A DNA stretch of 16,489 bases from assembly GCA_020353515.1 (NCBI GenBank), contig CP070695.1, forward strand, positions 3,092,354 through 3,108,842, given 5' to 3'. The notes beneath the pieces were generated by a model. The model had not been told where the DNA came from and did not search any database. It was given only the letters and a program-made list of their open reading frames with translations. Positions 1-15,066 of this stretch are shown piece after piece. Source of the DNA: Candidatus Heimdallarchaeota archaeon. Its GTDB lineage: Archaea > Asgardarchaeota > Heimdallarchaeia > Hodarchaeales > Hodarchaeaceae. Both the position numbers and the translations under genes were made by a program. How positions within the stretch are numbered: the first letter of the stretch is position 1; the number at the start of each line of letters is the position of its first letter.

Positions 1-159
1 ACGTGGCGAGCGGAGAAATTGCGACGACAGTAAGTATTATAGCTCCCATAGCTAATAAACTTGGACTAGGAGCAACTGGCCTGCTGGTGGAGTGGCAAAA
101 CCTTTATGTCCGAAGGACAATAATGGTTTTAGGGATGGGACTTAAGGCGAGGGAAAGGC
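1..159 (+). repeat. Intergenic structured repeat R0 (left end cut by window edge)
   Basis: Contains core GGAGTGGCAAAACCTTTATGTCCGAAGGACAATAATGGTTTTAGGGATGGGACTTAAGGCGAGG (89-152), shared with R3, R4, R7, R8, R9, R10 and R11. Confidence 0.9.
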
Positions 160-166
160 GATTGAT

Positions 167-484
167 ATGGAATTTAGACCTTGTGGTGCACAGGTTCTTA
201 TTATAATATTTATTTTCTCTATTATCTTAACAATTTTAATAAATTATTTCTATAGAACGGACCTGAAACTTTGGTTACTGATTGGATTGGGATTAGGAAT
301 AATAGGTGGAGTTATATCAACAATATCTTTTATTGCTTTAAATGAACAAATGTGGATTGAAGATGGATCAGAATGTCCCCCAATCAATTTGGGTTTATTC
401 CTCCCAATACTTATTATTCCAACAATTATTCTTATTTTATTCGAGATACTTATTCTTCAAATGAAGAAGAAAAATAAGATATAA
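167..484 (+). CDS. Small hypothetical membrane protein (about 3 TM helices)
   Basis: 105 aa ORF with three hydrophobic stretches and a basic C-terminus; fills the space between R0 and R1. Confidence 0.75.
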   Translation: MEFRPCGAQVLIIIFIFSIILTILINYFYRTDLKLWLLIGLGLGIIGGVISTISFIALNEQMWIEDGSECPPINLGLFLPILIIPTIILILFEILILQMKKKNKI

Positions 485-2240: not shown

Positions 2241-2329
2241 GGGATGGCTTCAGCGCAGGATGGAGTGGCAAAACCTTTATGTCCTAAGGACAATAATGGT
2301 TTTAGGGATGGGGCTTAAAGGCGAGGAGC
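2213..2329 (+). repeat. Intergenic structured repeat R3 (short variant)
   Basis: 2228-2326 is identical over 99 nt to 5537-5635. Confidence 0.95.
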
Positions 2330-2493
2330 GATATCAACAAAGGCTGTTGTGCCCAATTCAATGTGCATTATTTCATAACTCTAATTGACGATATTTTTAC
2401 GATCGTGCCAAAAAAGATATCTAATTGACTTACAATATATATTTCAAAAAGGGGTACAGGGCTCAATTTAAGGTTAAATAGGTAGCGATAAAT

Positions 2494-3483
2494 ATGAAAG
2501 GATTAAAAATATTCACAGTTGTTATTGTGATAGTATTATTGACTATCACCAGTTGGTATTTTTTCGGACGAGAAACAATTAAAACCGAAGATAACAACAA
2601 TGATTCTACACTTGTTGGGTTAAGTTTTACCGTCGAAGAATATCCAAAAGTCGATGGATCTACATCCACACACCCATTAGAGGTAATCATAGCATGTAGA
2701 TTGCTAAATATATCATATCATGAAACAATTTGGTATGATGGAACAAGACGCATTGTACCGAATGCCTCAGAACCAGGAAAAGAATACATTGCTGAGAATA
2801 TTACAGCGAACATAATCCATCATGGGACACATGACGCGTATGTGAACCTAATTAATGGTACAACCGATTTGATATTAGTTGCTAGATTACCTTCAGAAGA
2901 TGAACTTGCGCTTGCTGATGGAAGAAGTGTGGAACTTGAAGCAAAGCCAATTGCTCTGGATGCTTTTGTATTTATTTTGAATGAAAAGAATCAAATATAC
3001 AATCTAACAATAGAACAGATCCAAGGGATTTATACAGGTGCGATTACCAATTGGAGTGAAGTTGGAGGAAATTATACAGATATCAATCCATATCAAAGAG
3101 ATGAAAATTCTGGAAGCCAGGAACTAATGAAAAGGTTAGTAATGAAAGATTTAGAACTGATCGATTCACCTGATTTGGTCCTATATGGGATGATGGGACC
3201 TATAAATAGATTGAACTGGGATGAAAATGGAATTGGGTATACAGTTTATTACTTCGAAGAATTTATGGCACCCAATGATCATATTAAATTAATCGGAATA
3301 AACGGCTATTATCCAGATTATGAGAATATAAAAACAAAAAAATATCCATTTACGACTGAAGTATATGTAGTAATAAGAAAGGATCTTGATAAAGATAGCA
3401 ATGCATATAAACTCAGAGACTGGCTTCTTTCAGAAGAAGGACAAAGCGTAATTGAAGAAAGTGGTTATGTTCCCGTAAAATAA
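2494..3483 (+). CDS. PstS-like phosphate ABC transporter substrate-binding protein (PBP family), membrane anchored
   Basis: N-terminal TM anchor; DGSTSTHPL, GTHDAY, IALDAFVF, YQRDENSGSQELM and LSEEGQSVIEESGYV motifs. Confidence 0.85.
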   Translation: MKGLKIFTVVIVIVLLTITSWYFFGRETIKTEDNNNDSTLVGLSFTVEEYPKVDGSTSTHPLEVIIACRLLNISYHETIWYDGTRRIVPNASEPGKEYIAENITANIIHHGTHDAYVNLINGTTDLILVARLPSEDELALADGRSVELEAKPIALDAFVFILNEKNQIYNLTIEQIQGIYTGAITNWSEVGGNYTDINPYQRDENSGSQELMKRLVMKDLELIDSPDLVLYGMMGPINRLNWDENGIGYTVYYFEEFMAPNDHIKLIGINGYYPDYENIKTKKYPFTTEVYVVIRKDLDKDSNAYKLRDWLLSEEGQSVIEESGYVPVK

Positions 3484-3507
3484 ACCACCGTTATTGAATT
3501 TAAGCAT

Positions 3508-3662
3508 TCCGAGCAGCTTGGGAATGGCCATTCTCGGATTCCAAAGGAATTTGAGAATTAAGATGACGAGCAAAGCGAGACATCGCTAGCGCAGGACGGA
3601 GTGACAAAACCTTTATGTTCGAAGGACAATAATGGTTTCAGGGTTGGGGCTTGAGGAGGCGA
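3508..3662 (+). repeat. Intergenic structured repeat R4
   Basis: CCGAGCAG start, hairpin modules at 3531-3557 and 3562-3584, the AAAACC/GGTTT core hairpin, and a GGGGCTTGAGGAGGCG end; similar to R8. Confidence 0.9.
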
Positions 3663-3713
3663 CCGCAAATAAAAAATAGATGAACATTAATATATATATA
3701 TTAGGAGGAACCC

Positions 3714-3977
3714 ATGAATTTCGAACCGGATGCTATTATACTACCGAGACTAATCCCTTGGATAGAAAAAAGCAAGCTCCGGATAGCAATATTTGATATT
3801 ATCTCAACCATTATTGGGATTATTTTAATTTACATATGGCTAAAACATTTTTTCATCCCAATCTATGCAGTAAGCTCGATTATTGGTCTTTTTTCAATTA
3901 TCTTGGCTTTAGTGCTTTTAAATGGGAACGAGGAAGATCTTAGCTTAGCCATAATTAAGGCCCCTTCCCACCCTTAG
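3714..3977 (+). CDS. Small hypothetical membrane protein (2 TM)
   Basis: AGGAGG RBS; two hydrophobic segments; stop TAG falls in the start of R5. Confidence 0.7.
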   Translation: MNFEPDAIILPRLIPWIEKSKLRIAIFDIISTIIGIILIYIWLKHFFIPIYAVSSIIGLFSIILALVLLNGNEEDLSLAIIKAPSHP

Positions 3978-4129
3978 CAGGTAGGGGAGTACCGATTGTG
4001 AAAGGCGAGGGCCCGTAGGCAAAAAAGTTACTTCCAGACCAATAGTATTTAATAGGAAAATCCTAGGTGTCTGTAGGTGATAACCAGCAAAACGCAGGAC
4101 GAGATCTTTACTTAAGGATGGCGAATTTC
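3973..4129 (+). repeat. Divergent repeat R5
   Basis: AGCAGGTAGGGGAGTACCGAT (compare R6), AAAGGCGAGG (4001-4010), then CGCAGGACG and CTTAAGGATGGCGA (4111-4124). Confidence 0.7.
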
Positions 4130-4153
4130 ATACAAATATAGGATTGGGACTGT

Positions 4154-4762
4154 ATGAAAAATAAAAAGAAATTGGGTAAAATTTTATTCGACTCTCATCC
4201 GAATAATCCCAAATTTATCTTGACATCGTTTGTATTGATTATTATAGGAGGATCATTGTATTGGTGGGCTGTGTATTTTTTTGACCCAATCATTTACTTT
4301 TTAGGGTTTTTATTAGCGGTTATTGGTACGATTATTCTTATTGTCAATGAATTTATCGGAGGGAAATTCAGATTTAAGATATATCAGGATGGCCTAAAAT
4401 TAGATGTGAATAAATTTGCTGAAGACCCAAGAACTAATCTCACCAGAGGAGAAAAAATTGGAAAAAGAAAAGTGAGATATAATGAAATAGAAAGCATTCA
4501 TCCTTACATGATTAAATCCGAAGTTAATAAGGATTCTATGGGATTACAAATAATATTACCAAAAGAAAAGAATTTTTTTATGGTTGGTGAAATAATATTA
4601 TATGGGAAAGGTATTAAAAGAATGCCAGAAGTAATTAATTATTTAAAGATAAGAATGGGACCATTATGGAAAGATAAATTCAAAAAAGATAAACCAATAT
4701 GGATCGGCGATTTAGATCCGAATAAAATTTCTATGTTTGTAGAATTAGGAGAAACTCCCTGA
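4154..4762 (+). CDS. Hypothetical membrane protein (2 N-terminal TM plus soluble domain)
   Basis: 202 aa ORF with two hydrophobic helices followed by a basic soluble region. Confidence 0.8.
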   Translation: MKNKKKLGKILFDSHPNNPKFILTSFVLIIIGGSLYWWAVYFFDPIIYFLGFLLAVIGTIILIVNEFIGGKFRFKIYQDGLKLDVNKFAEDPRTNLTRGEKIGKRKVRYNEIESIHPYMIKSEVNKDSMGLQIILPKEKNFFMVGEIILYGKGIKRMPEVINYLKIRMGPLWKDKFKKDKPIWIGDLDPNKISMFVELGETP

Positions 4763-4792
4763 TATGAACTAACGAAATTCACGCGACCTGGC

Positions 4793-5038
4793 ACGAGCAG
4801 GTAGTGGAGTACCGATAGTACAGGGTCCATTTTCGGATTTCGAAGAAATTTGAAAACTAAGAGGGCAAGTGAAGCAAGTCCTCGAAGGCGGATTGCAGGA
4901 ATTTCGGTCCCACATCATAGGAAATTCGTGCAAGAGGAGGAAACTTGCTTTCCTCCGAAGGAAATTCCATATGAGCGACAACATTTATTTATGACAAAGC
5001 CAATGCTCAGGACGAGGTTATCACTTAAAGACGAAGCG
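4793..5038 (+). repeat. Intergenic structured repeat R6 (long mosaic variant)
   Basis: CGAGCAGGTAG start; hairpins at 4830-4856 and 4861-4883 are homologous to those in R4/R8; right end is homologous to R2. Confidence 0.85.
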
Positions 5039-5061
5039 AAACCTGAAAAGGAGGTATTCAA

Positions 5062-5493: not shown

Positions 5494-5522
5494 ATTCAAT
5501 TATAAATGTCCAATATAAGAGT

Positions 5523-5638
5523 TGCTCCTCGCCCGCTCCGAGCAGGTAGGGGATGGCTTCAGCGCAGGATGGAGTGGCAAAACCTTTATGTCCTAAGGAC
5601 AATAATGGTTTTAGGGATGGGGCTTAAAGGCGAGGCGA
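5523..5638 (+). repeat. Intergenic structured repeat R7 (short variant)
   Basis: GCTCCTCGCCCGCTCCGAGCAGG...CTTAAAGGCGAGG; 99 nt identical to R3. Confidence 0.95.
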
Positions 5639-5652
5639 TATAAGTAAAGGGG

Positions 5653-6099: not shown

Positions 6100-6139
6100 A
6101 AAATATATGGATTATCCATCAACCCCAATAATTATTTGA

Positions 6140-6306
6140 GCTTCGCCCAGTCCAAGTAGGTAGGGGATAACCATTCTCGGATTCCAAAGGAATTTGAGAT
6201 TTAAGATGACGAGCAAAGCGAGACATCGTAAGCGAGGTACGGAGTGGCAAAACCTTTATGTTCGAAGGACAATAATGGTATAAGGGATGGGACTTAAGGA
6301 GGCGAC
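6140..6306 (+). repeat. Intergenic structured repeat R8
   Basis: Same module order as R4 (TTCTCGGATTCC hairpin, GATGACGAGCAAAGCGAGACATC, core hairpin); ends CTTAAGGAGGCG. Confidence 0.9.
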
Positions 6307-6377
6307 TTCTGAATATAAGTGAGGCTGGAGGTAAGAATATCAACGAAGATGGAGACCACTCTACAATCAACAATCAT

Positions 6378-8297: not shown

Positions 8298-8327
8298 TGA
8301 AAAATTGGTAGAGTAGTCTACTACGTG

Positions 8328-8418
8328 CCGAGTAGAAGAGGGATGGCTTCGGCGCAGGATGGGTGGGAAAACCTTTATGTCCGAAGGACGATAATGGTTT
8401 TAAGGGATGGGACATAAG
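8328..8418 (+). repeat. Degenerate repeat R9
   Basis: CCGAGTAG...GGATGGCTTCGGCGCAGGATGG...AAAACCTTTATGTCCGAAGGACGATAATGGTTTT...GGGATGGGAC; terminal GGCGAGG is missing. Confidence 0.85.
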
Positions 8419-8450
8419 AACCAGTGTACCAAGAAAAAGAGGTTATGTTT

Positions 8451-9927: not shown

Positions 9928-11442
9928 TTATGATGTCGCTTTTACACGCTCCTCATGTGCCATATTGGCCAATTTTTCGATTTCTTTTTTATCCAATTTG
10001 AGTCCTTCAGCCACTCTGCGGCCATATTCAGGGTCTGCCTTGAAAAAGAGGGCTGTCTGTCGAAGTTGTATACGCTTTTGTGCTCCACCTAGATGATCAA
10101 CGATATTACCTATTAGATTCTCGCGGTCCTGATCTGTCATCACATCACGATACAGATTCCCAGGTTGAACAAAATCATCGTTGGGATATGTATACGGAAA
10201 ACGATCCGCCTCTCCAGAAATTTCGAAAGGAGGCTCCTTTGCAGAAATGTCCGGTTCTGGGCCCCCGAAGCTGTTTGGCCAGAAATTTGGGCCTTTACCT
10301 CCACCAGTATCGGTACGCATAAATCCATCGCGTTGATAGCTCATCTCAGGTGCATTTTTAGGAGCATTTACCGGAATCAAGTGATAGTTCGGTCCAAGTC
10401 TATGGATATGGGTATCGTGATATGAAAAAAGACGAGCTTGTAACATCTTATCAGGTGAGGCGGCAATACCAGGTACCAGATTCCCCGGGCAGAATGCAGC
10501 CTGCTCAACCTCAGCAAAGTAATTCTCAGGGTTGCGGTTCAAAACCAGTTTGCCCACCTCGATCGGTGGATAGTCACCATGTGGCCAGACTTTTGTGATA
10601 TCAAAGATATCAAAACGGTAATCTTTAGCTTCCTCAGGTTTCATTATCTGCATCTGTAAGGTCCATGATGGGTAATCTCCCCGCTCGATGGCATCATAGA
10701 GATCCCTTGTGGCATGGTCTGGGTCTTTGCTGCGCATAATCGCTGCTTCCTGTCGAGTAAGATTTTTAATTCCCTGATCTGTCTTAAAATGATACTGCAC
10801 CCAAAAATATTCGCCTTTCTCGTTGTACCACTTAAAAGTGTGACTGCTATAGCCATTCATGTTTCGATACGTTGCTGGAATCCCACGATCGGAAAAGAGA
10901 ATGGTTACCTGGTGAATTGATTCAGGTGTCAGGGAAAGGAAATCCCAGAACATATCCGGATCCTTACAATTGGTAGCAGGGTTTCGCTTCTGTGTGTGTA
11001 TGAAGTCTGGAAATTTTAATGGATCGCGTATAAAGAAAACTGGTGTATTATTTCCGACAAAATCGTAGTTACCTTCTTCGGTATAGAACTTCACTGCAAA
11101 TCCTCGTGGATCACGCTCGGCATCAGCTGAACCCTTTTCTCCTCCCACGGTGGAGAAGCGGGCAAATACCTCGGTTCGTTTACCAACCTCAGAAAGGAAC
11201 TTGGCCTTGGTGTACTTTGTAACATCCGCGGTAACCTCAAAGTACCCATACGCACCGGCCCCCTTTGCGTGCACTACACGCTCAGGGATACGCTCACGAT
11301 CGAAATGACCTAACTTCTCCAGCAGATGAACATCCTGCATCAGAACAGGGCCTCGTTTCCCTGCAGTAAGGCTGTTCTGGTCATCACCAACTGGTATTCC
11401 AAAAGCTGTGGTTAATTTCTTTTTCTGTTTCTTATCGCTCAT
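9928..11442 (-). CDS. katA: Monofunctional heme catalase (small subunit)
   Basis: [15 protein letters not shown] active-site motif, [26 protein letters not shown] and the RLFSYHDTH heme-ligand motif; GGAGGT RBS on the - strand (11448-11453). Confidence 0.97.
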
Positions 11443-11516: not shown

Positions 11517-11577
11517 GTGTTACCGCTTTGAGTAAATGTATTGAGTTTTCAAAAAACTCAAAAACCCTTTTTTCACC

Positions 11578-11640
11578 GTAGCAAAACCTTTATCCTCGTA
11601 AAGAGTTATTGGTTTTAGGGATGGGGCTTGAGGAGGCGAG
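11578..11640 (+). repeat. Partial repeat R10 (right half only)
   Basis: GCAAAACCTTTAT-CCTCGTAAAGAG-TTATTGGTTTTAGGGATGGGGCTTGAGGAGGCG; no CCGAGCAGG left end. Confidence 0.85.
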
Positions 11641-11681
11641 AAGCTTATTCCTTTATATCGAGAAGTGGGAGAGGATAATAA

Positions 11682-13257: not shown

Positions 13258-13286
13258 TGATAAGAGAAGTGAGTCATCACTGGCAA

Positions 13287-13359
13287 AGGACGGAGTAGCA
13301 AAACCTTTATCCCCAAAGGACAATAATGATTTTTAGGGCGGGCTTTAAAGGCGAGGAGC
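13287..13359 (+). repeat. Partial/degenerate repeat R11
   Basis: AGGACGGAGTAGCAAAACCTTTATCCCCAAAGGACAATAATG...TTAAAGGCGAGGAGC. Confidence 0.85.
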
Positions 13360-13444
13360 TATAATAACAATGGTTGTTTGCCCGAATAGAATGTGCCTGA
13401 AAAAGGTTGGCGGTTAGATCTTCAGATAGAGGAGGACCATTAAA

Positions 13445-14257: not shown

Positions 14258-14266
14258 AATATAAAG

Positions 14267-14402
14267 CGTTCCGAGCGTGTAGAGGAAGGCAATTCTTGGA
14301 TTCTGAGGGAAATTGAGAATTAAGATGATGAGCAAAGCGATTGCACAATAGGACGAAAGATTTAAAGAATATAAAATCATATTGAGGAAGACTGGGCCGA
14401 GG
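14267..14402 (+). repeat. Degenerate repeat R12
   Basis: CGTTCCGAGC start; ATTCTTGGATTCTGAGGGAAATTGAGAATTAAGATGATGAGCAAAGCGA is homologous to the R4/R8 modules; right end is poorly conserved. Confidence 0.75.
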
Positions 14403-14941: not shown

Positions 14942-14974
14942 AACAGGGCATGGATATCATTGAATGGAGCGTTT

Positions 14975-15003
14975 AGCCAAGGCTAGGGCTTGAAGGTGAG
15001 GAG
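14975..15003 (+). repeat. Remnant repeat R13 (right end only)
   Basis: AGCCAAGGCTAGGGCTTGAAGGTGAGGAG; 26/29 identical to the end of R1. Confidence 0.75.
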
Positions 15004-15066
15004 TAAAAAATAATATAAGGCTGTTAGCCAGTCTCCTATGTATAATATTAAAAATTAAAAGGGGAA

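Follow-up and report, generated by a model that had tools for sequence, protein, structure and literature searches.

To our knowledge, integrons are the only well-understood system in which genes are stored and shuffled by means of folded single-stranded DNA. Their attC sites provide the precedent for folding of the bottom strand (PMC6393395, PMC5027507), and archaeal integrons and CALINs with canonical attC sites have been described as enriched in Asgard genomes (Ghaly et al. 2022, PMC9668308). The window analysed here, a stretch of 16,489 nucleotides from a Candidatus Heimdallarchaeota archaeon (G000:C1:3092354-3108842; all further window positions count from its first letter), belongs to a closed 4.94-Mb genome with 35.8% G+C and contains 14 G+C- and purine-rich elements of ~45-300 nt, which lie between genes from position 1 to ~15010, all on the + strand. 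Like sedentary chromosomal integrons and the integrase-less CALINs, including the archaeal ones (PMC9668308), the locus strings together small unrelated genes and toxin-antitoxin pairs in a single direction, each followed by a similar folded repeat whose copies resemble one another within one array and whose unpaired bases are conserved. However, the RYYYAAC and GTTRRRY boxes of attC sites are present at no junction element, the only such pair in the window lying inside a catalase gene, and the array is devoid of IntI. The array has the cassette logic of integrons yet fails two defining integron features, the R boxes and IntI. In further contrast to attC, the site is multi-branched, extends to ~300 nt and is composed of exchangeable modules, its strand features favour the top rather than the bottom strand, with the bulged A on the + strand 3' arm, and the cassettes seem to have their own promoter-like spacers. 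As a multi-helix element of up to ~300 nt, it is more elaborate than any attC site known to us. REP/RAYT elements and the ends of IS200/IS605, single-stranded DNA hairpins that HUH enzymes read on one strand, share imperfect hairpins, conserved bulges and, as proposed for the repeat, strand-specific reading with it, whereas the genome studied here has no Y1 HUH gene and the copies of the repeat sit together in one array instead of being scattered. A literature search found no published description of the repeat, and Rfam 15 covariance models (E <= 1) gave 0 matches in the window and, on six related contigs, a single chance-level row (Xist_exon1, 17.6 bits vs a gathering score of 50, E 0.67).

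A whole-genome search limited the repeat to this one 15-kb stretch of the 4.9-Mb genome, with no further copies found elsewhere in the closed assembly. The cargo genes are mutually unrelated and encode a ParE toxin and an antitoxin, a PBP-like protein, DUF3795 and RibD_C proteins, a radical-SAM enzyme, an FGE-sulfatase-type enzyme, a GNAT acetyltransferase and several orphan ORFs; for an orphan cassette ORF, no convincing homologue was found in 400 Asgard genomes. The FGE-sulfatase cassette also occurs in metagenome contig L194, with 83% identity and other neighbours, and toxin-antitoxin cassettes are present in both arrays. The + strand is the sense strand for nearly all genes, the sole exception being the catalase gene (9928-11442, - strand), which has a G+C content of ~45% vs 36% for the genome, carries partial elements on its flanks and looks like a foreign cassette put in backwards. 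The elements beside it remain on the + strand, indicating that their orientation is set by the array and not by the gene. Truncated element copies are common. In relatives, the orthologous ABC-transporter locus has no array beside it, and no replication direction could be derived from the GC skew of the genome. A leader of ~40 nt follows the right arm of the repeat in the window (2329-2366) and in L194 (~3995-4032), as well as in L195 and L197; it is common to cassettes whose genes differ (window and L194 are 92% identical here), contains a small CAACA/TGTTG hairpin and may be a portable promoter or leader module.

The elements are modular and mosaic, 100-300 nt in length, and share a layout in which a left arm (core CCTCGCC) is followed by several covarying helices and a right arm (core GGCGAGG), the cores of the two arms being mutually complementary. 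The compact canonical form is seen in E7 (5516-5642), where an outer stem P1 encloses P2 and the core hairpin, and E3 (2212-2336) is likewise compact, with left arm, P2, core hairpin and right arm; the stop codon of ORF 1704-2240 lies within E3. E4 (3502-3663) has a short left part, P2 arms at 3505-3510 (5') and 3598-3603 (3'), two inserted hairpins, H1 (3530-3558) and H2 (3562-3584), the core hairpin (3606-3639), and a G-rich linker with the right arm (3640-3662). Diverged versions of H1 (4829-4857) and H2 (4861-4883) with three compensatory pairs occur in E6 (4783-5042), together with more private hairpins and a right arm near 5029, and E8 (6134-6312) again carries H1 (6173-6201), H2 (6205-6227) and the core hairpin (6249-6282). 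The first copy in the window, E0 (1-160), consists of a "long-Z" module (1-90) shared with metagenome copies, the core hairpin (97-130) and the right arm (146-159). ORF 3-206 (window 1-206 and L005 19902-20000) is an in-frame continuation of an upstream TPR gene and yet passes through E0, whose first 90 nt match this metagenome module. E1 (488-790) is composite, with its left arm at 490-503, and the left part of E2 (1440-1676) differs from that of E1 in two aligned columns over ~111 nt before diverging abruptly, as in a mosaic. E5 (3955-4128) is a variant between ORFs of 87 and 202 aa, its left part overlapping the 3' end of ORF 3714-3977. The remaining copies are incomplete and comprise E9 (8318-8424; truncated, without right arm), E11 (11575-11646; core and right arm, adjoining the - strand catalase gene), E13 (13275-13364; partial), E14 (14258-14345; left part with H1 at 14292-14320 and a truncated H2) and E15 (14965-15012), a right-end fragment and the final copy in the array. 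The core hairpin of E13 (13300-13333) resembles a hybrid, combining the 5' arm of one apical-stem type with the 3' arm of another, so that pairing is lost, as if recombination or conversion had its breakpoint in the loop. Within ORF 4154-4762, a segment of 25 nt (4356-4380) resembles the 3' half of H1 and the bases beyond it, with 76-88% identity to other copies, and may be chance or an old fragment.

The original prediction, made from the window alone, had proposed that hairpins of the repeat fold on the coding strand, probably as single-stranded DNA, with a polarity opposite to that of attC. All hairpin sequences that it quoted are present where it placed them. H1 has a stem of 12-13 bp capped by a 3-nt loop, the tandem G-T at its centre is kept in all four copies, and the comparison of 3531-3557 with 4830-4856 bears out the two proposed C-G to T-A double changes. 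In H2, a 4-bp outer stem around C-GA-GC / GC-GA-G, one T-A pair of this stem is likewise replaced by G-C through a double change (3562-3584 vs 4861-4883). Overall, 18 of the 65 aligned positions distinguish E6 from E4, and three pairs are changed on both sides, a number reached in 14 of 500 shuffles; when the placement of the 18 differences was simulated, at least three double changes arose with P = 0.019, or with P = 0.0005 if additionally at most one broken pair was allowed. The bulge proposed for the core hairpin (for instance at 3606-3639) is a single bulged A on the 3' arm, which is accompanied by a T-T mismatch in 8 of 8 window copies. The core hairpin is nearly invariant within the window and is therefore little informative there. 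Loops, read from alignments (an automated loop census was too noisy), are of 3 nt in five of eight hairpin types, consistent with the claim that triloops predominate, and the other types have loops of 4-7 nt, including TACG-like ones.

Using the conserved right end as a query, the repeat family was detected on 12 metagenome contigs, on which a covariance model (R1) recovered 22 further copies (E <= 1e-6), always co-oriented with genes. In the 29 distinct copies from window and metagenome that form the covariation set for the core hairpin, 94.2% of cells are paired vs 85.3 +/- 0.8% after shuffling, and 28 cells are double-changed vs 6.8 +/- 2.0 (both reached in 0 of 500 shuffles), counts that are not to be read as probabilities, given the relatedness of the copies and an alignment fitted to the model. 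Slid controls of the core hairpin were all <=58% paired. The apical stem of the core alternates among several sequence types, with the bulged A retained. Metagenome copies also contain a longer "module B", whose helices were set from invariant anchors. They comprise stem X1 (4 bp), for which seven different pairs of arms occur, a 2-bp step that changes from GC/GC to GT/AC, an inner stem of 3 bp, the apical stem of the Z hairpin, two nested Y hairpins and a linker hairpin. Jointly, 107 of 117 cells in the module-B helices are paired, compared with a mean of 94.2 and a maximum of 105 in 5000 shuffles, and X1 alone reaches P = 0.002. Five helices besides the core covary. The covariation check on this larger copy set, through which the predicted fold could have failed, returned pairing above shuffles in both the core and the module-B helices, and on this combined covariation it is well established that selection keeps pairing in at least six helices.

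Outside these metagenome contigs, blastn found no copy in 41 relatives, and R1 found no true copies either in 151 Asgard genomes or in the genus, of which all 22 genomes were scanned; weak matches in G017, G021 and G045 were rejected as copies, being inside GTPase or other protein-coding genes. Scans of genome-contig and viral-contig collections returned chance matches or none. No recombinase was found within 20 kb of the array, and a search of the closed genome found no IntI, Y1 HUH (PF01797), IS110, serine recombinase or reverse transcriptase. For the families searched, all that the genome offers is a pair of Xer-like tyrosine recombinases at distances of ~0.87 and 2.35 Mb, and the IntI profile TIGR02249 remained below its cut-off, with a best match 0.87 Mb away that covers only profile positions 11-178 and 237-303. 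A related metagenome array contains an IS110-family transposase gene (L186:1297-2280, - strand of the locus; DEDD_Tnp_IS110 and Transposase_20), which has the same orientation as the elements and lies ~190 nt upstream of one of them. IS1111-type elements target attC sites. In another contig, neighbouring cassettes (L191:2103-2909 and 3079-4440) encode a TIR-domain protein and a PLD-like nuclease-type protein, a defence-like cargo.

Bases beyond the 7-nt core of the left arm are cassette-specific. In 5 of 10 cassettes this extension pairs, 4-7.5 nt past the core, with the right arm that precedes the same gene, and in 0 of 10 does it pair with the right arm of its own element; the bracketing complementarity is missing in half of the cassettes. 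One bracketing pair joins the right arm of E0 (146-159) to the left arm of E1 (490-503) through 14 perfect base pairs, two more cases lie in the window, and others were found in L190, L194 and L197. This arrangement is like that of integrons, in which the beginning of a cassette can pair with the 5' arm of that cassette's own site and crossover takes place in the 3' arm. Because the arm after a gene pairs with the arm before the same gene, a crossover at the DNA level would be needed, and because the right arm and the sequence following it belong to the next cassette, this crossover would lie just 5' of the right arm (GGCGAGG). The right arm appears to be situated upstream of the AT-rich, promoter-like spacer of the cassette, which would make its presence in one transcript with its partner unlikely.

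The choice of strand was addressed through mismatches and folding energies. Across 11 helices, with distinct arm pairs counted once, the census comprises 351 Watson-Crick, 35 G-T, 9 A-C and 17 other cells, and by helix position G-T occurs at 19 and A-C at 7. Relative to the 57% expected from base composition, the G-T excess has p = 0.002 by cells, which are not independent, and p = 0.11 by positions. The proposed abundance of G-T mismatches on the + strand is thus moderately upheld over the 11 helices and does not extend to the core hairpin alone, which shows no bias (G-T 5 vs A-C 7). The original prediction had also suggested comparing the folding energies of the two strands, and this comparison proved not to discriminate: whole elements fold with lower absolute energy on the + strand, and comparison with dinucleotide shuffles gives the two strands equal z-scores, indicating that the energy difference is compositional. 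H1 folds better on the + strand by 4-5 kcal/mol with RNA parameters and by 1-1.5 kcal/mol with DNA parameters. Within the window alone, minority-state transitions had no strand bias, and a Watson-Crick-only fold with mismatch typing offered too few events. RNAalifold placed different helices on each strand with no clean asymmetry, and anchor-defined helices were used in its place. The claim of tandem G-A pairs was supported, as GA or GGA stands opposite GA or GGA on the same strand in five helices (H2, Z, two module-B sites and a helix common to E1 and E2), where the flanking pairs covary and both sides lengthen or shorten jointly.

These GA/GGA motifs on both arms between covarying pairs constitute the strongest strand argument, and they bear on two rival explanations. 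If the bottom strand folded as in canonical attC, the + strand features would be by-products of base composition, a scenario that could draw on the integron precedent (PMC6393395, PMC5027507), on the equal z-scores and on a core hairpin that folds equally well on either strand (-11.0 vs -10.6 kcal/mol with RNA parameters); yet on the - strand all five GA/GA motifs become pyrimidine-pyrimidine loops, H1 would contain a tandem C-A mismatch, and the 35 G-T against 9 A-C cells point the other way, rendering this scenario very improbable. Alternatively, no single strand may fold at all, the repeats being duplex palindromes for dimeric proteins or decaying copies of a mobile element, with compensation arising through arm-to-arm templated repair. 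Most pairs are indeed Watson-Crick and symmetric and the modules are mosaic, as such an origin would have it; however, a duplex palindrome would put TC on the second arm, so GA on both arms of the same strand has no duplex symmetry and is expected of a folded single strand only, while the bulge and the T-T mismatch persist and covariation extends across many short helices of variable sequence, which leaves a repeat without a fold improbable as well. The non-Watson-Crick features fit the + strand only, and it is very probably this coding-sense strand that folds, as judged from the sequence.

A more serious rival accepts the + strand fold and takes the folded molecule to be RNA, either the 3' end of the upstream cassette mRNA or an RNA of its own, acting as a stabiliser, terminator, processing site or guide, in which case the DNA-level cassette logic would rest on the outer arms only. 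Co-transcription of the elements with the genes is likely, given that the + strand is sense for nearly all of them, that neither a T-run nor a terminator separates the stop codons from the left arms, and that two ORFs end inside elements. With its many helices and conserved purine loops, the architecture is RNA-like, TACG-like (UACG-like) and GAAA loops are present, and wobbles make up ~8% of pairs, one of them at a constant position in several linker hairpins; such a proportion is the frequency expected in RNAs. On the other hand, GNRA loops are nearly absent and C-GNA-G triloops common, Rfam returned nothing beyond the chance-level Xist_exon1 row, the orientation of the elements follows the array at the catalase cassette, many copies are truncated, and the bracketing arm, probably upstream of the promoter-like spacer, would be expected outside the same RNA. 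GNA triloops closed by C-G form stable DNA mini-hairpins (PMC13037366, PMC3201870), which are far more stable than their RNA counterparts, with a Tm of 76.5 C for d(GCGAAAGC) vs 39 C for r(GCGAAAGC), and the CCGAAGG motif has been described in the ssiA DNA hairpin (PMC13037366). By sequence, the repeat resembles them in having CCGAAGG at the core apex and, in the hairpins of the core, H1 and Z, C-G-closed triloops of the types GAA, GTA and GAG, a likeness that covers only about half of the purine triloops; about half of all triloops are AAA, TAA or pyrimidine-rich. Its C-GA-G motifs facing each other likewise recall the tandem sheared G-A pairs in CGAG contexts (PMC10085684), motifs that are stable in RNA too. 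Accordingly, of the proposed top-strand single-stranded DNA fold, folding of the + strand is well supported, whereas for its DNA part the C-G-closed GNA triloops fit, and the AAA, TAA and pyrimidine-rich triloops, non-GNRA tetraloops and TACG-like loops together with the ~8% wobbles do not single out DNA. Sequence features favour the top strand, and the claimed polarity opposite to attC is valid only if the substrate is DNA. Taken together, we regard an RNA as the less likely product of the fold, although it is a contender in its own right.

The preferred reading is that the element is a folded top-strand single-stranded DNA recombination substrate, to which we assign a probability of about 0.48, its DNA nature, the recombination and the enzyme being what we infer from the arms and helices. 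The hairpins are modules of a large modular repeat, and it is this repeat that forms the junctions of the integron-like array of gene cassettes in this Hodarchaeales-type Asgard archaeon. A putative recombinase would read this site as a folded single + (coding-sense) strand, most likely single-stranded DNA, and would cross over just 5' of the GGCGAGG right arm, with a folding polarity opposite to that of integron attC sites. More tentatively, the locus could represent a cassette-capture system with parts unrelated to those of integrons, in which a large modular top-strand DNA fold with tandem G-A pairs and GNA mini-hairpins is cut 5' of GGCGAGG by an enzyme other than IntI, HUH, IS110 or serine recombinases.

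Collectively, the array combines an integron-like cassette logic with a different and far more elaborate folded site, apparently of opposite polarity, in the archaeal lineage closest to eukaryotes. Its ~30 copies constitute a ready structural alignment. A DNA fold would add to the diversity known among structure-specific recombination sites; an RNA fold would make the repeat a new large structured RNA linked to gene mobility.
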